From: a bacterium
GTDB taxonomy: Archaea; Thermoplasmatota; E2; JACPAO01; JAHFTW01
Direction: 5' to 3'
NCBI GenBank assembly: GCA_040390065.1
Contig: JAZJZE010000017.1
Coordinates: forward strand, 31,274 to 95,273
DNA length: 64,000 bases
Below, one piece after another: positions 608 to 63,504 of the stretch. The translations under genes were made by a program, and so were the position numbers. Positions within the stretch are counted from its first letter, which is position 1. Each line of letters opens with the position of its first letter. Below the pieces are notes generated by a model. The model ran no database searches. It worked only from the letters and a program-made list of their open reading frames with translations, and was not told the DNA's origin.

Positions 608-642
608 CCATTCGACGGGGCACCGCGACAAACCGCCAGGCT

Positions 643-11829: not shown

Positions 11830-13183
11830 GGACTGAGCCGTCGGCCTGCTGGAAGTTCTCCAGGATTGCAACCAATGTGCGCTGCACCGCGATGGCCGTG
11901 GAGTTGAGCGTGTGGACGACTTCCGTCGGGTCGCCCGGGTTCTTGCGGCTGCGCGTGTTGTAGCGCCGTGCCTGGAAGTCCGTGCAGTTCGAGCAGCTGA
12001 CGACTTCGCGGTACGCGCCCTGCGCCGGCATCCACGCCTCGATGTCGTACTTCTTCGCCGCGATGGAGCCGAGGTCGCCGGTGCAGATGTTCACGACGCG
12101 GTACGGAATCTTCAGTTTCTGGTACAGCGATTCCGCGTTGGCGATGAGCTCATCATGGATGCGCCATGAGTCCTCGGGCTTGCAATACACGAACATCTCG
12201 ACCTTGCTGAACTGGTGGACGCGGAAGATGCCCTTCGAGTCCTTGCCGTGCGCGCCAGCCTCCTTGCGGAAGCAGGGTGACACGCCCGCGTAGCGGAGAG
12301 GGAGTTTGGCGTCCTCGAGGATCTCGCCCATGTGCATTGCAGCGATGGGGTGCTCGGACGTGGCGATGAGGTACAGGTCCGGTTCTCGGGCCCGCCCGAA
12401 CTTGTCAACAGATGGAACAGATGCAGCAGATGAAGCGGACGGGCTGCCCGCAATCTGTTTGTTCTGTTTCATCTGTTGACCGTCCGTCGGCGGCCCCGAG
12501 GCCACTTCAACACCACCCGCCTCGACCTTGTAGATCACGGACTCGAAGTCCGCCAAATCGATTGCCCCCTCCAGGGCCTCGCGGCGAAGCAGGTACGGCG
12601 GCTCGATGGGCAGGAAGCCCTTCTTCGACAACTCCGTGAGCGCGAAGAACTCCAAGGCCCGACCAAGCATCACCAGGTCGCCCTTGAGGTAGAAAAAGCG
12701 GCTGCCGGCGGCGCGGGCGGCGCGTTCCAGGTCCGCAAGGTCGAGGGATTCCAGGAGGTCGACGTGCGACTTCGCCGGGAACGCATGCGTCGGCTTGCCG
12801 CCCCAGGCGCGAATCTCCACGTTCTCGGAATCGTCCCTGCCGACGGGGACCGAGGGATGCATGAGATTCGGGATGGTGCGAAGCAGACCGTCGCGAGTCT
12901 TCTCCGCTGTCGGCACGTCCGATTCGAGGCGCTTCAGTTCGTCGCCGAGTTGCGCCATCTTCGCAAGAATCTCCTTCGCATCGCCACCCGCCTTCTTCGC
13001 CTCCGCGATGAGCTTGCCCGACTTGTTGCGCTCCGCCCGCAAGGCCTCCATTTTCTGCAGGCCCTCGCGCCAGGCACGGTCATGTTCACGCACGTCGTCC
13101 ACGACGGCGGCGTCGCGACCGCGCTTCTTGAGGTCGGCTCGGACCCGTTCCGGGTCTTCTCGCAGGATGCGGATGTCAAGCAT
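11762..13183 (-). CDS. serS: Serine--tRNA ligase, carrying a 45-aa in-frame insertion
   Basis: MLDIRILREDPERV coiled-coil arm, LYLIATSEHPIAAMH, GVSPCFRKEAGAHGKDSKGIFRVHQFSKVE, and SNCTDFQARR. Confidence 0.92.
   Translation of the reverse strand: MLDIRILREDPERVRADLKKRGRDAAVVDDVREHDRAWREGLQKMEALRAERNKSGKLIAEAKKAGGDAKEILAKMAQLGDELKRLESDVPTAEKTRDGLLRTIPNLMHPSVPVGRDDSENVEIRAWGGKPTHAFPAKSHVDLLESLDLADLERAARAAGSRFFYLKGDLVMLGRALEFFALTELSKKGFLPIEPPYLLRREALEGAIDLADFESVIYKVEAGGVEVASGPPTDGQQMKQNKQIAGSPSASSAASVPSVDKFGRAREPDLYLIATSEHPIAAMHMGEILEDAKLPLRYAGVSPCFRKEAGAHGKDSKGIFRVHQFSKVEMFVYCKPEDSWRIHDELIANAESLYQKLKIPYRVVNICTGDLGSIAAKKYDIEAWMPAQGAYREVVSCSNCTDFQARRYNTRSRKNPGDPTEVVHTLNSTAIAVQRTLVAILENFQQADGSVLIPEPLRPYLGGRERIVARPTP
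12386..12520. repeat. Palindromic 9-mer element (copy A3) inserted in frame in serS
   Basis: The core at 12404-12480 reads gtcaacagatggaacagatgcagcagatgaagc-ggacgggctgcccg-caatctgtttgttctgtttcatctgttgac. The flank cgtccgtcggcggc is shared with the copy at 59.99 kb. 135 nt = 45 codons with no stop. Confidence 0.7.
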
Positions 13184-15490: not shown

Positions 15491-15584
15491 AATCAACCGA
15501 AGCAACAGAAGCAGCCGAACGACGGTCGGTCGGTTGCGTCGGTTGCGTCGGTTGGCAGGCCGGCGTCGTCGGGTCGGTTGATTA
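15491..15584. repeat. Full palindromic 9-mer element (copy A4) between convergent genes
   Basis: The termini aatcaaccga / tcggttgatt flank the arms agcaacagaagcagccgaac and cggttgcgtcggttgcgtcggttgg. The right terminus supplies the stop codon of the 15582..16145 gene. Confidence 0.65.
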
Positions 15585-23312: not shown

Positions 23313-23362
23313 TACCGGTTGGTCGTGCCGCGTCATCTGTTGCATCGGTTGCATCTGTTGAC
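23313..23362. repeat. 9-mer array, half copy (A5)
   Basis: catctgttg catcggttg catctgttg ac, followed by ccgtcgtggtgg. Confidence 0.6.
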
Positions 23363-23422
23363 CCGTCGTGGTGGGTCCGTTGCGGCGTCGCCGTTTTCTA
23401 TCCCACGCCCGTCGCCGTCGCC

Positions 23423-52107: not shown

Positions 52108-52161
52108 AGGAGGAAATGCTCCCCGACGATTGGACGTCTCGATGCGGCCCCGACGGCGGGG

Positions 52162-52192
52162 CAACAGATGCAACAGATGCAACCGATAGCGA
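52162..52192. repeat. 9-mer array, half copy in reverse orientation (A6)
   Basis: caacagatg caacagatg caaccgata. At 52262-52292 it is followed by caagtgattgaccggtttgcagg, a diverged copy of the C-module terminus. Confidence 0.55.
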
Positions 52193-52339
52193 CGGCCGTG
52201 CAAGCGGTGTGGGCGGCAACCGCGCGCCGTTCCGTTGGGTCGAGCCGCGCGAAGGTCCACGCGCAAGTGATTGACCGGTTTGCAGGCCACCGAATCCCAA
52301 ACGTGGATTCAAATCCCGTCAGACCCACGGCCCTGGTCC

Positions 52340-52891
52340 ATGGGCCCGAAAACCCTGACCCTTCTCCTGCTTGTCGGCTCCCTGGCGGGCTGTGCGTCGT
52401 CCCCGACATATCCTGACGGCTACCTCGTCGACCGCAACCACCTCGAAGGCGAGATGGCCATCTCGTCCACGAATGAAGCCTCGGGCCCCCCGTACTACGC
52501 CTCGCTGGTGCCGGCGTCGACTCTGGCGTTCAGTCCGCTTGTTGGAACCAATCCCGAAGAGACTTGGCAGCAGCTCATCACGCACCCGGCCATCGACGGC
52601 GAGGGGCGTACGTATCCGAAGGGGATGACGCTCATGGCGGCGCGCTACGGCTCCGTAAGTGACGCCAAGGCCGCGGCCGACCACTACTTGGCGGCGCTGC
52701 AGGGCACGAAGTGCGACTTCTACAAGCCTGGCACGTTTGCCTTCCGCGGCGACGATGTGCTCGTCGTCGGATTCGACGGGGGCGACATGCCGTATCCTCT
52801 GTCCCTGATGCGCTCGTCGGTCGCCGGCATGCACCCGGATCTCACCTTCGTCGCCCAGGGGTGCTACCTGAGGCCCACCTTCGGAACCTAG
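52340..52891 (+). CDS. Lipoprotein, hypothetical
   Basis: MGPKTLTLLLLVGSLAGC lipobox. Confidence 0.6.
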   Translation: MGPKTLTLLLLVGSLAGCASSPTYPDGYLVDRNHLEGEMAISSTNEASGPPYYASLVPASTLAFSPLVGTNPEETWQQLITHPAIDGEGRTYPKGMTLMAARYGSVSDAKAAADHYLAALQGTKCDFYKPGTFAFRGDDVLVVGFDGGDMPYPLSLMRSSVAGMHPDLTFVAQGCYLRPTFGT

Positions 52892-53607: not shown

Positions 53608-53628
53608 GCCACCGCACTCCGGCCACCT

Positions 53629-53662
53629 GTCAACAGATGCAACAGATGCAACCGATGACCGA
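53629..53662. repeat. 9-mer array, reverse orientation (A7)
   Basis: gt caacagatg caacagatg caaccgatg accgac. A degenerate partner arm (..gatcggttag) may lie at about 53730. Confidence 0.6.
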
Positions 53663-54865: not shown

Positions 54866-56038
54866 ATGGTCGCCATCAAGGACAAGGACCGCCTCGCCAC
54901 CAAGTGCGTCCACGCCGGCGTGCACCCGGACCCAGTGCACGGCGCCGTCAATCCAGCCATCCAGTTGTCCACCACGTTCCGCCAGCCGGCCCCTGCCGAG
55001 CCCCTGACGTTCGACTACTCGCGTGCCGGCAACCCAACACGTGAAGCCCTCGAGGAGGCCATCGCTATCCTGGAAGGCGGCGCCACCGGCCACGCGTTCT
55101 CGTCGGGCCTGAGCGCCCTGGATGCCCTCCTGCGGACGCTCAGCGCGGGTGACCACGTCGTCGCGGCCGAGGACGCGTACGGCGGCTCCATCCGGCTCCT
55201 CAACAAGGTCTGTGCGCGGCAAGGCATCAAGACCACGTTCGTGGACACCCGTGACCTTGCGGCGACGAAGAAGGCGATGACGAAGCAGACCAAGATGGTG
55301 CTCCTCGAGACGCCGACGAATCCTCTCCTGCGAGTGAGTGACATCGAGGCCGTCGCCGAGATTGCCCACGATGGGGGGGCACGCCTCGTCGTCGACAACA
55401 CGTTCATGTCGCCGGCATTGCAGAACCCACTCGGCCTCGGCGCGGACGCGGTCTTCCACAGCGCCACGAAGTACATCGGCGGCCACAGCGACGTCTTGGC
55501 CGGCGTCATCGCCTGCAAGGATGAAGAGCTCGGGCAAGAAATCCGTTTCCTTCAGTTGGCAGTCGGTGCGGTGTGTGCGCCCTTCGACGCATTCCTGCTG
55601 CTTCGCGGCCTGAAGACGCTGCACCTGCGCATGGAGCGGCACAGCGAATCGGCGGCCGTCCTAGCCCGCCAACTGTCGGACCACAAGGCCGTGGGCAAGG
55701 TGTACTACCCCGGCCTGTCGTCGCACGACGGCCACAAGGTGCACGCCCGCCAGGCCCGCTTGGGCGGCGGCATGCTGAGCTTCACCCTCAAGGATGCCAA
55801 AGCGGCCCGGGCCGTCGTCGCCCGCACCCGCATCTGGCAACTGGCCGAATCCCTCGGCGCCGTCGAATCGCTCATCCAGATTCCCGCCCTCATGACGCAC
55901 GCCAGCGTACCGCGCGAGATGCGCATCAAGACCGGCCTCGAGGATGGCCTCATCCGCCTCTCCGTCGGCGTCGAGGACGTGGACGACTTGTGGGCGGACC
56001 TGGAGCAGGCCGTCTCGGGCAAACCGACGCGTCGTTAG
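54866..56038 (+). CDS. Cys/Met-metabolism PLP enzyme (cystathionine gamma-lyase / gamma-synthase family)
   Basis: YSRAGNPTREALE, DNTFMSPALQNPL, and SATKYIGGHSDVLAG (PLP Lys). Confidence 0.9.
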   Translation: MVAIKDKDRLATKCVHAGVHPDPVHGAVNPAIQLSTTFRQPAPAEPLTFDYSRAGNPTREALEEAIAILEGGATGHAFSSGLSALDALLRTLSAGDHVVAAEDAYGGSIRLLNKVCARQGIKTTFVDTRDLAATKKAMTKQTKMVLLETPTNPLLRVSDIEAVAEIAHDGGARLVVDNTFMSPALQNPLGLGADAVFHSATKYIGGHSDVLAGVIACKDEELGQEIRFLQLAVGAVCAPFDAFLLLRGLKTLHLRMERHSESAAVLARQLSDHKAVGKVYYPGLSSHDGHKVHARQARLGGGMLSFTLKDAKAARAVVARTRIWQLAESLGAVESLIQIPALMTHASVPREMRIKTGLEDGLIRLSVGVEDVDDLWADLEQAVSGKPTRR

Positions 56039-57764: not shown

Positions 57765-57836
57765 GTCAACCGATGGAACCGATGAAACAGATGGACAGCC
57801 GCGTCGGCATCGGTTCGATCTGTTGCATCTGTTGAT
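57765..57836. repeat. Full palindromic 9-mer element (A8)
   Basis: gtcaaccgatggaaccgatgaaacagatggac-agccgc-gtcggcatcggttcgatctgttgcatctgttgat. Confidence 0.7.
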
Positions 57837-59666: not shown

Positions 59667-59712
59667 GATTGCGGCGACGGGATAGAGGTGTTGAGCGTTG
59701 CGGAAAGGGGAC

Positions 59713-59885
59713 GACCTGCAAACAGGTCGATCATTTGCGATGTCCTGCCTCGGCTTCGCCTCGCCACATCGCGGCGGAGGGCTGCCGCCCCCCGCCCCTG
59801 TCCCCCCGCCGGGGGGCCTGCCGGCCCCCGCGACCCCCCGCGGGCTCGCGCAGCGGCGCTCGCAAGTGACGCTCGCCCGGGCGGT
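59713..59885 (+). repeat. Three-hairpin GC-rich module, copy C1 (left arm of inverted pair)
   Basis: gacctg-caaa-caggtc, gcgatgt-N22-acatcgc, ggcgg-N7-ccgcc. The core 59713-59837 is the reverse complement of 62186-62310 with 2 mismatches in 125 nt (hand alignment). Confidence 0.8.
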
Positions 59886-59904
59886 TCCGCTGGTCCTCCG
59901 CTTT

Positions 59905-60021
59905 CATCTTCTGTCCGTCCTCGGTTGCATCGGGGCATCTGCGGATGGGCGGTCGGCCCTGTTCATCGGTTGCATCCGTTGCATCTGTTGACCGGTCGTC
60001 GGCGGCGTTGGCATCCGTCGA
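59905..60021. repeat. 9-mer array (A9)
   Basis: catcggttg catccgttg catctgttg ac cggtcgtcggcggc, with degenerate units on both sides. Confidence 0.65.
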
Positions 60022-60048
60022 CGCCAGGTGCGCGGGCCGTCTGTCGCC

Positions 60049-60054
60049 TTTAAA
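60049..60054 (+). promoter_or_regulatory. TATA-like box cTTTAAAcg for nop5-flpA
   Basis: About 27 nt upstream of the GTG at 60079. Confidence 0.45.
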
Positions 60055-60078
60055 CGAACTTCCACCGTCCCCATCGCC

Positions 60079-61392
60079 GTGGCGCGCGCGACTTGGCTGG
60101 ACAAGGCCCCCGACGTGGCCGCCGTCGTCGCCCACCTCGAGGCCGCGGCGAAGGCCGCGAAGGGGCCGCTTGCCTTCGAGCCGGTGCAGGTCCCCGGTGG
60201 CACCGACCTCGCGGTTCTCCACCAAGCCGCACTTCTGCGCGTCCGGGCGCAACTTTCCATCTCGCACGCCGAGGCCGACCGCATCCTCGCGCAGGAAGTC
60301 CGCGCCATCGACGACCTCGTGCGCACCGCGAACCTCCTAGTGGAGCGGCTGCGCGAATGGTACGCCCTGCACGCCCCGGAAGCCGCCCGCATGGTCCCCG
60401 ACGCGGAGGAGTTGACGCGCCTCGTCGTGGAGCACGGGGAACGCGGCCTTGTCATGACGGCGTTGAACCAAGCCCAGACCGCCTCCACGTCCCTCGGCAC
60501 GGACCTCGACGCCCGCGACATGGCGGTCCTGCAAGGATTTGCGGCGGCGCTGCAGGCCGTCCACGAATCGTGGCGCGCCCTCGAAGTCCGCGTCGGCTCG
60601 CTCATGGAAGAGGTGGCGCCCAACGTCGCCTCCGTCGTCGGCCCCGTCATCGGCGCCCGCCTCATCGCAATCTCCGGCGGCCTCAACCGCCTGGCGACGT
60701 GGCCCGCTGGCACCGTGCAGCTCCTCGGTGCCGAGACGGCGCTCTTCCGCCACCTCAAGGAAGGCACGAAGCCGCCCAAGCATGGCATCTTGTTCCAGCA
60801 CCCGCTCGTCCACTCCGCCGTACCGTGGAACCGCGGCGTCATCGCCCGCGCCCTAGCCCTTGCCGCCGCCACCGGGGCCAAGGCCGACGCGTTCACCAAG
60901 AACGACCTGCGCGTCTTCCTGAAGGCGCAACTCGACAAGGACTTGGCCCGCATCGCGACCCGCAAGCCGTCGACCAAGCAGCGCACCTTCACCCCTGGAC
61001 GACGGCCGTACGGCCGCGCCCCGCCATCCCGCGATGGCCCTCGTCCTGGTGGGTTTGCGCCGCGCGACTCCGGACCCCGCTACGGCCCGCCGCGCGACGG
61101 CCCCCGCCCCGGTGGCTTCGGTCCCCGCGAGGGTGCCCGCGATGCCCCACGGGATGCCCCACGGCCAGGCGCTTTCGGCTCCCGCGAGGGCGCGCGTGAC
61201 GATCGAGGCCCGCGCCGTGAGGGCGGCTGGTCGCCGCCGCCGCGCCGCGACGGACCCGGTGGCCCGCCACGCGGACCGGCCGGAGGCGCCGGAGCTGGCA
61301 AGCCGTGGAAACGCAAGCCACAGGGCGCGTTCCGACGCGAGAACAAGCCCGCAGCACCGCCGGGCCGCGGCGACAAGGGTGATTCCCGATGA
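60079..61392 (+). CDS. nop5: Nop5 (Nop56/58) C/D-box sRNP core protein with ~135-aa Arg/Gly/Pro-rich repetitive C-terminal tail
   Basis: LREWYALHAPE, APNVASVVGPVIGARLIAISGGLNRLA, and LLGAETALFRHLKEGTKPPKHGILFQHP. The start is the GTG at 60079 (leaderless distance from the TATA box) or the GTG at 60028. Confidence 0.88.
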   Translation: MARATWLDKAPDVAAVVAHLEAAAKAAKGPLAFEPVQVPGGTDLAVLHQAALLRVRAQLSISHAEADRILAQEVRAIDDLVRTANLLVERLREWYALHAPEAARMVPDAEELTRLVVEHGERGLVMTALNQAQTASTSLGTDLDARDMAVLQGFAAALQAVHESWRALEVRVGSLMEEVAPNVASVVGPVIGARLIAISGGLNRLATWPAGTVQLLGAETALFRHLKEGTKPPKHGILFQHPLVHSAVPWNRGVIARALALAAATGAKADAFTKNDLRVFLKAQLDKDLARIATRKPSTKQRTFTPGRRPYGRAPPSRDGPRPGGFAPRDSGPRYGPPRDGPRPGGFGPREGARDAPRDAPRPGAFGSREGARDDRGPRREGGWSPPPRRDGPGGPPRGPAGGAGAGKPWKRKPQGAFRRENKPAAPPGRGDKGDSR

Positions 61393-62045
61393 GGGCCGGC
61401 GCCGTCTTCGGAACCTTCGAGGACAAGGGGTTCCTCTGGACCGAGAACAAAGTGCCCGGCCACGCCGTCTACGGCGAACGGTTGCGCAAGTCGATGGGCA
61501 AGGAGTTCCGCAATTGGAACCCGTACCGCAGCAAACTCGCCGCCCTCGTGCGCAGCCGCCCCGACACGCCGTGGTTCGGCGGTCGCGACGATGTGCTGTA
61601 CCTCGGCGCCGCATCGGGCACGACTGTTTCGCACCTGTCCGACATCACCCAGGGACTCATCTACGCCGTCGAATTCTCTCCCCGCAGTGTCCGCGACCTG
61701 TTGTGGAACATGGAGCCGCGCAGCAACGTCGTGCCCATCCTCGAGGACGCCGGAGCGCCCGAGCGGTACGCGGCGTACATCGCCCAGCCCGTCGCCGCCC
61801 TGGTGCAGGACGTGGCCCAGCGCCACCAGGTGGAGATCTTCCTGCGCAACATGCCGTTCGTGCGCAGTGGCGGCCGCGGCTTTCTGATGGTGAAGGCCCG
61901 CAGCATCAACGTCAACGAACCCACCTCCGCCATCTACAGCGAAGTCCGGTCGAAGCTCACCGCGGCCGGGCTCAAGATCGAGGCCGAAGTGGATTTGGCA
62001 CCGTTCGAGACGGACCACTGCGCCTTCGTCGTGAAGAAAAGTTAG
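61389..62045 (+). CDS. flpA: Fibrillarin-like rRNA/tRNA 2'-O-methyltransferase
   Basis: EFRNWNPYRSKLAA, VLYLGAASGTTVSHLSD, YAVEFSPR, and DVAQRHQ. ATGA overlap with nop5. Confidence 0.93.
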   Translation: MRAGAVFGTFEDKGFLWTENKVPGHAVYGERLRKSMGKEFRNWNPYRSKLAALVRSRPDTPWFGGRDDVLYLGAASGTTVSHLSDITQGLIYAVEFSPRSVRDLLWNMEPRSNVVPILEDAGAPERYAAYIAQPVAALVQDVAQRHQVEIFLRNMPFVRSGGRGFLMVKARSINVNEPTSAIYSEVRSKLTAAGLKIEAEVDLAPFETDHCAFVVKKS

Positions 62046-62157
62046 CCCGCGGTTCCTGGCCACCGACGGATTCCTGATCCTCCGAGGGCGGCGGAACACA
62101 GATTGCGACGAATCCGTCACGACACGGGCGTAGGCCCCCGGTCGGGGCGAGGCAGTG

Positions 62158-62310
62158 GTGCGAGCGCATCGGCGCGAGCCTGCCGGGGGTCGCGGGGGCC
62201 GGCAGGCCCCCCGGCGGGGGGAAACGGGCGGGGGGCGGCAGCCCTCCGCCGCGATGTGGCGAGGCGAAGCCGAGGCAGGACATCGCAAATGATCGACCTG
62301 TTTGCAGGTC
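62158..62310 (-). repeat. Three-hairpin module, copy C2 (right arm of inverted pair)
   Basis: The core 62186-62310 is the reverse complement of 59713-59837 with 2 mismatches. The outer ~40 nt are more diverged. Confidence 0.8.
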
Positions 62311-62391
62311 GAGGGGCGGCAGTCCCCCGCCGCGGTGTCGCGAGGCGAAGCCGATGCAAGACACCGCAAATGATCGACCTGTTTGCAGGTC
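62311..62391 (-). repeat. Three-hairpin module, tandem partial copy C3
   Basis: There are 7 differences from the last 81 nt of C2. The stem gcgatgt/acatcgc becomes gcggtgt/acaccgc (a compensatory pair), and the other changes fall in loops. Confidence 0.75.
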
Positions 62392-62430
62392 GGGCGAGGG
62401 CCGCCGGGGGCACTGGCATGCTGCGGGCGG

Positions 62431-62504
62431 CCTGGGAGAACAGGAGCCGGCCTGTGAACCGGAACTCGCTCACCTTCTCTCCACGTGGTTCCTGTTCTCC
62501 CAGG
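62431..62504. repeat. 15-bp perfect inverted repeat (long hairpin) upstream of epimerase gene
   Basis: cctgggagaacagga (62431-62445) and tcctgttctcccagg (62490-62504), separated by a 44-nt spacer. Confidence 0.7.
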
Positions 62505-62559
62505 CCCCCCACTCAGGAACAAGCCGCAAACTCATTGACCCCGCCACCTTCGCCGTGGC

Positions 62560-63504
62560 GTGGACTTGAAGGGCAAGAAGGTCCTGGTCACGGGCGGCGC
62601 CGGCTTCATCGGCAGCCACGCCGTCGACCGGCTCGTCGCGGAAGGCGCGAAGGTCACGGTCCTGGACAACCTCAGCGCGGGCAAGGAGGAATTCCTCGCG
62701 GATTCGCGCAAACGCATCACCTTCGTGAAAGGCGACTGCGGCGACCCGGCGACGCTGGACCGTCTGCTGCCGGGCATCGACGCGGTCTGGCACATGGCGG
62801 CGAACCCCGACGTGCGCAGCGGCGCCACGGACCCGACGCCGCACTACGAACAGAACATCGCCGTCACCTACCGGCTCCTCGAAGGCATGCGACGCCACCG
62901 TGTCCGCCACGTGGCGTTCACGAGCACGAGCACGGTGTACGGCGTCGCCACAATCCTGCCGACGCCGGAAAACTACGGGCCGCTTCTGCCCATCTCCGTC
63001 TACGGCGGGGCCAAACTCGCCTGCGAGGCCATGGTCGCCGCCTACGCGGGCACCTTTGGCCTTGACGCTGTCATGTTCCGCTTCGCCAACGTCGTGGGTC
63101 CGCGCTCGACGCATGGCGTCATCGTGGACTTCGTGCGCAAGCTCAAGGCCGACCCCAAGAAGCTCGACATCCTGGGCGACGGCCGCCAGACGAAGTCCTA
63201 CGTTTCCGTCGCCGACACGGTCGACGCCATGGTCCACGCCACGCGGGTGGCGAAGCCCGGCTGCCACGCATACAACATCGGCAGCGCCGACAGCATCAGC
63301 GTGACCCGCCTGGCCGAGATCGTCTGCGGCGTCTTGCGGGTGAAGCCCAAGTTCGTCTACGCCGGTGGGACGCCCGACGGCGCCGGCTGGAAGGGCGACG
63401 TCAAAGTCATGGCCCTCGCCATCGAGGCGCTCGGCAAGACCGGTTGGCATCCCCGGCACTCCAGCGAGGACGCGGTGCGCATCGCCGCCCAGTCGCTCGT
63501 CTGA
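62560..63504 (+). CDS. NAD-dependent nucleotide-sugar epimerase/dehydratase (extended SDR)
   Basis: VLVTGGAGFIGSH and YGGAKLACE (YxxxK). GTG start. Confidence 0.88.
   Translation: MDLKGKKVLVTGGAGFIGSHAVDRLVAEGAKVTVLDNLSAGKEEFLADSRKRITFVKGDCGDPATLDRLLPGIDAVWHMAANPDVRSGATDPTPHYEQNIAVTYRLLEGMRRHRVRHVAFTSTSTVYGVATILPTPENYGPLLPISVYGGAKLACEAMVAAYAGTFGLDAVMFRFANVVGPRSTHGVIVDFVRKLKADPKKLDILGDGRQTKSYVSVADTVDAMVHATRVAKPGCHAYNIGSADSISVTRLAEIVCGVLRVKPKFVYAGGTPDGAGWKGDVKVMALAIEALGKTGWHPRHSSEDAVRIAAQSLV

Follow-up and report, generated by a model that had tools for sequence, protein, structure and literature searches.

A rare hairpin-bearing repeat family and unstable gene order at the nop5-flpA operon of soil Thermoplasmatota

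Repeat arms on either side of nop5-flpA

In a 64-kb stretch of archaeal DNA (contig JAZJZE010000017.1; hereafter the window, to which all coordinates refer), the nop5-flpA operon (60079–62045, + strand; nop5 60079–61392, and flpA, the fibrillarin gene, 61389–62045) is bracketed by two inverted copies of a short repeat module. Judged by the comparison of its copies, the module is a member of a rare repeat family, non-coding and lineage-restricted, of a soil Thermoplasmatota clade. Quite possibly the arms are copies of a non-autonomous repeat element whose copies act as recombination substrates, a reading that is put forward here tentatively. The module is present at some related loci and missing from others, has discrete ends and a conserved hairpin, and lies where gene order is unstable.

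Repeat pairs were taken from a repeat search and the copies were then compared base by base. Long copy A, the left arm (59712–59864, + strand), lies between the start of an ABC-F ATPase gene on the minus strand and the nop5 promoter. Long copy A′, the right arm (62159–62311, − strand), is inverted relative to copy A and follows the flpA stop codon by 114 nt. In the repeat search the arms are 153 nt long, 95% complementary and 2294 nt apart. An earlier reading of this DNA from the sequence alone (the initial annotation) had described inverted arms of 125 nt, and these are found as claimed: 59713–59837 and the reverse complement of 62186–62310 differ at two positions, 59798 and 59800. The outer ∼40 nt are more diverged, as had also been stated, with mismatches reaching 7 over 152 nt; past ∼59864/62159 the similarity is random. 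Between them the arms enclose, again as described, the operon together with its own upstream elements (59951–60054, + strand), which are an array of the 9-mer GTTGCATCN (59951–59999) and a TTTAAA box (60049–60054).

A short copy, B (62307–62392, − strand), stands in tandem with A′ and consists of the 5′ 81–86 nt only, without the conserved 3′ block. It pairs with 59712–59797 of copy A over 86 nt at 90% in the repeat search. Seven differences had been counted between B and its neighbour A′; this holds for the first 79 positions, while all 81 positions give eight. Two of them, A to G and T to C, convert GCGATGT/ACATCGC to GCGGTGT/ACACCGC, so the compensatory stem change that had been noticed is present. 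A decayed fourth copy of the core (52262–52290, − strand; GGCCTGCAAACCGGTCAATCACTTGCG, 4 mismatches in 27) was recovered by an nhmmer profile search (E = 0.003). The 64-kb window has four module copies, three of them at the nop5-flpA locus. The conserved 28-nt core (59712–59739, + strand) is made up of the hairpin CGACCTG-CAAA-CAGGTCG followed by ATCATTTGCG, and its 27-nt form occurs three times in the window vs none in 100 shuffles. A and A′ agree at 98% over 125 nt, whereas B reaches 90% and a copy on the metagenome contig L012 (below) 75%; this points to arms that would be either recent duplicates or homogenised by gene conversion.

Copies in other genomes

Nine copies of the family are known: four in the window, one in L003, two in L012/L026 and two in L019. 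A 19-mer pattern from the core was scanned against one genome per species (185,579 species genomes) and against metagenomes of the Joint Genome Institute (JGI). Ten loci matched in the species genomes, nine of them by chance. The real one is L003, a metagenome-assembled genome (MAG) labelled Halobacteriales, where an exact match to the 28-nt core is continued by homologous sequence. The metagenomes gave one soil contig, L012, with the core twice; L026, the same short contig in a second assembly, was reached via the neighbouring PDDEXK_3 gene and extends L012 by 18 nt. Copy 1 of L012 aligns with a window arm over 158 nt at 75% identity (E = 2e-21). The two cores of L019 are diverged and were found by profile search. 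A scan of viral sequences gave one chance match only, and a BLAST search of plasmids gave nothing. By its fibrillarin homologues, the organism of the window falls among Thermoplasmatota MAGs, a few of which are labelled ‘Halobacteriales’.

The ends of the element are discrete. In winLA, winRA and L012 copy 1, similarity extends from CGACC to GCGCT(C/A)GC(A/G). The common plan is a 28-nt 5′ core (the hairpin and GATCA...), a more variable middle and a conserved 3′ block, GCGACCCCC..GGCTCGCGC.GCGGCGCT.GC, giving a full form of ∼150 nt besides truncated forms of 50–85 nt. Copies away from nop5-flpA adjoin unrelated genes, namely tRNAs, a HicB-like open reading frame (ORF) and a predicted lipoprotein gene.

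Conservation of the first hairpin

All three hairpins named in the initial annotation appear in the predicted minimum-free-energy fold of the module (z = −4.9 for the first 86 nt; −4.8 for the opposite strand), and z-scores for the first 75–86 nt range from −3.8 to −4.9. Over the nine copies from the four sources, only the first hairpin and the ensuing (G)ATCA are preserved. In this hairpin 98.4% of cells are paired, two pairs have changed in a compensatory manner (C-G to U-A and G-C to U-A), and two more become G·U on the core-forward strand. Three window copies, L003 and copy 2 of L012 have an identical 28-nt core, from which copy 1 of L012 departs at a single position. The 7-bp stem GCGATGT/ACATCGC is found in the window copies only. 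At its place L012 and L003 have an 8-bp hairpin with a cUUCGg or cUACGg loop, the two differing by a compensatory C-G to U-A change; in L019 the region of the second hairpin is poorly paired and the copy is barely structured (z = −0.8). An alifold comparison of the window copies with L012 gave no covariation in the tail beyond hairpin 1 (covariation term +2.79).

It had been proposed that the three-hairpin structure is under selection. Because hairpin 1 alone is kept across the nine copies, selection on structure is supported for this one hairpin and not for the three-hairpin module. The chance of one compensatory event among the eight differences between A and B is ∼4% by a rough estimate, and that change is suggestive only as a sign of structural selection.

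Coding potential of the module

The same strand had also been read as encoding a small protein starting (M/V)SC(L/I)GFAS... In this frame four of the A/B differences are synonymous, as had been counted (although out of eight, not seven), and ATG in one copy is replaced by GTG (GVG-type) in the other, so that start codons are present. Four out of eight at third codon positions is, however, not unusual (p ∼0.26, an estimate). Indels break the frame in L012 and L003, neither of which shows a counterpart to the ATG/GTG codon at the corresponding place. An exhaustive search of 1.84 billion protein representatives with the window ORF 61975–62364 (− strand) gave three matches only, and the many short stretches of which these consist suggest low complexity. 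A six-frame query of concatenated peptides against 5.8 billion proteins gave no match among the best 8000 candidates. All six frames are open at the module because its G+C content is 68%. The small-protein reading is effectively refuted, with no convincing homologues for the peptide, and the module encodes nothing conserved.

Presence and absence at the flpA-epimerase junction

The repeat family was examined for association with nop5-flpA and with REARRANGEMENTS. For the operon, twelve FlpA loci of relatives with DNA were compared, in addition to the Logan contig of the window itself; their FlpA is 76–86% identical to that of the window. The module is absent downstream of flpA in the seven loci with readable DNA there (L013, L014, L015, L018, L021, L022 and L023). 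An epimerase gene starts 0–9 nt after flpA in six relatives (L013, L015, L021, L022, L023 and L025), while in the window the two genes are separated by a spacer of 515 nt (62046–62559) that contains A′, B and a separate 24-bp hairpin. Since the six relatives have 0–9 nt at this place, the window's spacer is an insertion. On the other side of the operon, a PGK gene is divergent upstream of nop5 in L015 and L024, and cut upstream ORFs in L016 and L021 resemble PGK by eye; in the window an ABC-F gene occupies the place of PGK. No module is present at the loci with a tight junction or a PGK flank (L013, L015, L016 and L021–L025).

A further case is provided by L026/L012 1–200 (minus strand), where a called 61-aa ORF continues into the module copy, from which come its last 17 codons and its TAG stop. 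This is the pattern expected for an insertion into the 3′ end of a gene. The ORF looks HicB-like when read by eye, and no HicA partner was seen upstream of it.

Gene-order change around the operon

In L019 (FlpA 81% identical), cores are found on both sides of nop5-flpA, in direct orientation and among different neighbours. In L018, nop5-flpA is followed by CBS and CysMet genes, the latter 83% identical to window 54866–56038. In the window the CBS-CysMet pair is found on the opposite flank of the operon, with the relative orientation reversed; inverting what lies between the arms would give the relative orientation of L018. L018 also lacks the PFK and ABC-F genes that stand between CBS and the operon in the window. 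In the P0004 contig (ERR5029654/5), for which gene order only is considered, nop5-flpA-epimerase is inverted relative to ferric-reductase and Cu-oxidase genes, and the flpA-epimerase gap is 1070 nt. L014 and L019 have still other neighbours, L014 differing downstream, and more distant relatives (74–77%) keep the tight ancestral order. With respect to the order from flpA to epimerase, the orientation in the window is the ancestral one. The repeat family coincides with a rearrangement hotspot, the relation being a correlative one.

The initial annotation had suggested that recombination between the arms would invert the operon as a self-contained cassette. This could in principle happen, the operon taking its own promoter along, and nop5-flpA is indeed flipped relative to CBS-CysMet between the window and L018. 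The Logan contig ends were considered as evidence on orientation and set aside as uninformative, unitigs being unable to cross 31-mers common to both arms. The contig in question, L001, comes from SRR26324623 and corresponds to window 59809–62116; its break at the repeats is to be expected of a de Bruijn assembly. Its end at 62116 lies 43 nt short of the right arm, not symmetrically inside, which could be a strain variant or a coverage break.

A proposed non-autonomous repeat element and its weaknesses

In the tentative reading given at the outset, the hairpin core would be a cis site recognised by a DNA enzyme acting in trans, for which an HUH/Y1 transposase (as for elements derived from IS200/IS605) or a site-specific recombinase would be candidates. 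The element would have inserted and been duplicated on both sides of nop5-flpA. The copies so placed would then serve as substrates for homologous recombination, through which the promoter-carrying operon could flip; the recurrence of breakpoints at both nop5-flpA flanks in the clade would thereby be explained. If gene conversion occurs between the arms, then the arms pair, and crossing-over between them would invert the operon. Inversion in the present day, the way in which the element moves and the enzyme itself are what we infer here, from the distribution, ends, hairpin and gene order described above.

Several observations weigh against this reading. There are no terminal inverted repeats (TIRs): the first 35 nt compared with the reverse complement of the last 35 score 5–6, vs shuffle means of 4.6–5.3. 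No clear target-site duplication (TSD) is seen, with none at winLA, and L012 copy 1 is flanked by an imperfect ∼13-nt match (GGACAAGCGTTGGT / GGCAAGCCCTGGT) that is maybe due to chance. Neither a transposase nor an integrase is found among the scanned genes of the window (all but those at ∼19.6–21.3, 25.8–27.2, 39.1–41.5 and 50.1–50.9 kb), in L003 or in the other scanned loci, and no autonomous partner element was found. The copy number is very low, unlike that of a typical active family of miniature inverted-repeat transposable elements (MITEs) or repetitive extragenic palindromic (REP) sequences, the exact 19-mer core being present in one of the 185,579 species genomes and one JGI metagenome contig. 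The core is 28/28 identical across sources with tails only 75% alike, and such invariance could equally mean a cellular function, for example in protein binding or as RNA. Finally, of the nine copies known, five stand beside nop5-flpA in two genomes whose neighbouring genes differ, a clustering not predicted by random insertion.

Alternative readings

The module might instead act as RNA, either as a small non-coding species with structure or as an element in cis, read on the strand that has the core first, with the hairpin and AUCAUUUGCG as its functional parts. The two compensatory pairs of hairpin 1 argue for this, as do its two G·U pairs, which would be C·A mismatches on the other strand, although hairpins of single-stranded DNA accept G·T just as well. 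The second hairpin of L012 and L003, with its tetraloops on the same strand and its compensatory difference, and the fold z-scores are further points in favour; both strands fold equally well, however, the L019 copy is barely structured, and nothing beyond hairpin 1 covaries. No Rfam 15 family matches the modules, even at E ≤ 10 (in the whole window only two tRNA-Thr genes reach threshold), and no box of the TTTAAA or CTTAAG type, as seen before window genes, lies upstream of any copy. An RNA is on balance unlikely, if still credible. Less probable, but to be taken into account, is an origin connected with tRNA genes, in which the modules would be tRNA-derived, or remnants of arms next to the attachment sites of tRNA-targeting integrative elements, scattered by rearrangement. 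In L003 the reverse-complement core abuts a tRNA-Met-like 3′ half and stands in for the D arm of that sequence, with 37 nt at this place. The half scores 31.9 bits with the Rfam tRNA model (threshold 29; E = 2e-5), and its anticodon arm is identical at 22 of 23 positions to that of an intact tRNA-Met 77 nt away, with the look of an att-type direct repeat. The decayed copy of the window adjoins a T-arm-like GGATTCAAATCC and an acceptor-like CAGACCCA (∼52300–52335, + strand), and weak similar remnants are seen upstream of winLA, winRB and L012 copy 1. The remnants outside L003 are weak and were read by eye, however, and neither ARAGORN (introns allowed) nor Rfam finds anything tRNA-like at the window modules or the 52.3-kb copy. 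No integrase is present nearby among the scanned genes, and the nop5-flpA flanks of the relatives are free of tRNA genes. A tRNA connection seems rather unlikely.

The core could also be a protein-binding DNA site (an operator, insulator or invertase site) tied to nop5-flpA, with the arms as a programmed inversion switch. Its 7-4-7 dyad is far better conserved than the surroundings, and cores bracket the operon in two genomes with different neighbours. In L019, however, the cores are direct and not inverted, most relatives have no core at all at nop5-flpA, and the remaining copies adjoin unrelated genes. The left core is also 310–420 nt upstream of the TATA box, which was judged too far for the usual archaeal regulators, and there is no recombinase gene in the scanned part of the window. 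Such a switch is very unlikely. A bolder proposal is that the core marks an undescribed kind of archaeal module for mobility or recombination, perhaps derived from tRNA, which brackets an essential housekeeping operon with its own promoter (nop5-flpA) and moves or flips it as a cassette. It would explain the cores flanking the operon in two genomes with unrelated neighbours as well as the recurrent breakpoints; it is distinctly doubtful.

Other candidate identities were tried and rejected. A box C/D small RNA has a box C (RUGAUGA), a box D (CUGA) and a guide spacing of ∼12 nt; the window copies read AUGAUCG, there is no CUGA on the reverse strand, and no C/D family matches. In L019 the left copy, next to nop5, does read GUGAUGA-N9-CUGA at 609–635 (reverse strand), with perfect box C and box D motifs, which is treated as a coincidence as no other copy has them. 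H/ACA, dif/Xer and terminator readings were rejected by eye. An integron attC site, in which R″ (RYYYAAC) and R′ (GTTRRRY) ends pair to form one long imperfect hairpin, was rejected likewise, since the folds give several separate hairpins and no GTTRRRY is seen by eye at the 3′ end. Five copies lie 46–170 nt upstream of a co-oriented gene, which prompted a promoter reading with the reverse-complement core (CGCAAATGAT) as B recognition element and TATA box; no start codon or leaderless geometry fits, and homology runs 125 nt beyond the core. The L003 copy as an intron-containing tRNA was also discarded, because no D arm is restored by intron removal and ARAGORN gives only a sub-threshold, overlapping ‘tRNA-Tyr’.

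Two observations concern the tRNA-like sequences themselves. In L003 (6600–6811, minus strand) the module lies exactly between the intact tRNA-Met and the half, which has C37 and a different T arm. In the window (52225–52345) the T-arm/acceptor-like sequence ACGTGGATTCAAATCCCGTCAGACCCA stands next to the decayed core with a D-arm-like GGGTCGAGCCGCGCGAAGGTCCACGCG upstream, and no tRNA model reaches threshold there.

Comparison with known elements

Palindrome-associated transposable elements (PATEs) are non-autonomous derivatives of IS200/IS605 elements and have been reported in archaea such as Haloquadratum. With PATEs the module shares its short, non-coding and intergenic character, the lack of TIRs and of any clear TSD, conserved ends around a variable middle, and a conserved end hairpin with a stem kept by compensatory changes. 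It differs in its very low copy number and in the position of the hairpin, which is right at the boundary in the module and ∼10–20 nt inside in PATEs. Moreover, no cognate TnpA/TnpB element with the module's ends was found in the scanned genes, and the 3′ hairpin is weak (4 bp, GCGC-NGCG-GCGC) beside a strong, covarying 5′ hairpin. MITEs and REP sequences, including bacterial interspersed mosaic elements (BIMEs), are likewise small, hairpin-rich intergenic repeats that stand singly, in tandem or as inverted pairs and promote rearrangements. Unlike MITEs, the module is without TIRs or a clear TSD; unlike REPs, it has no GTAG-type head or RAYT gene; and it is present in a handful of copies where MITEs and REPs have tens to hundreds.

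The 153-nt arms of 95% identity, bracketing a self-contained, promoter-carrying operon, recall invertons and inverted copies of insertion sequences, as does the occurrence of the operon, by gene order among relatives, in both orientations relative to CBS-CysMet. No invertase gene is adjacent, however, and neither orientation would switch expression on or off. The tRNA-targeting integrative elements of archaea resemble the L003 arrangement, with a module between an intact tRNA-Met and a displaced-looking 3′ half and a 23-nt anticodon-arm repeat. Unlike them, the intervening ‘element’ of L003 is only ∼115 nt and has no integrase, and no tRNA partner accompanies the nop5-flpA copies of the window. 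Integrative elements in tRNA genes and att-site tRNA fragments of archaea have reportedly been treated in the literature of She, Brugger and Chen.

If the reading as a non-autonomous element is true, an undescribed and very low-copy repeat family of uncultured soil Thermoplasmatota would have altered the surroundings of the operon for box C/D methylation. It would have detached the epimerase gene from the nop5-flpA-epimerase unit of the ancestor and left an inverted repeat of 153 nt through which the operon could flip. This would be a modest but concrete example of repeats changing gene order near essential genes of archaea. The 28-nt core, invariant while the tails diverged by 25%, is a well-defined target in the search for its recognising protein. 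The present evidence points neither to a new RNA class nor to a new regulatory principle.

Other features of the locus

The separate hairpin in the flpA-epimerase spacer (62425–62510), between B and the epimerase gene, has a 24-bp stem (92% complementary) and a 38-nt loop and occurs once in the window; Rfam gives only chance, miRNA-like matches to it. The 33 nt before the epimerase start (62528–62560) are 73% alike to the stretch from the nop5 TATA box to its start (60052–60084), with TCGCCGTGGCG identical. Once split off from the operon, the epimerase gene may have acquired a duplicate of the promoter of nop5, or the likeness may be due to chance.

Arrays of the 9-mer GTTGCATCN are also intergenic elsewhere in the window, at 647–695, 12404–12494, 15499–15549, 23321–23369, 52145–52208, 53619–53658 and 57772–57835, in addition to the one before nop5. 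A two-unit pattern has 17 matches in the window vs 0.5 expected, and the arrays are often found 50–100 nt upstream of a TATA-like box. A related array, GTTCGGTGN, precedes nop5 in L019. The arrays look like a genome-wide upstream promoter element.

Nop5 itself has a C-terminal tail rich in Arg, Gly and Pro, encoded by three repeats of 57–63 nt (GPRPGGF..PR(D/E)G..; window 61027–61199). The tail recalls the glycine/arginine-rich (GAR) domain of eukaryotes, which is there carried on fibrillarin. Nop5 is 437–510 aa long in the relatives, so the length of the tail varies.

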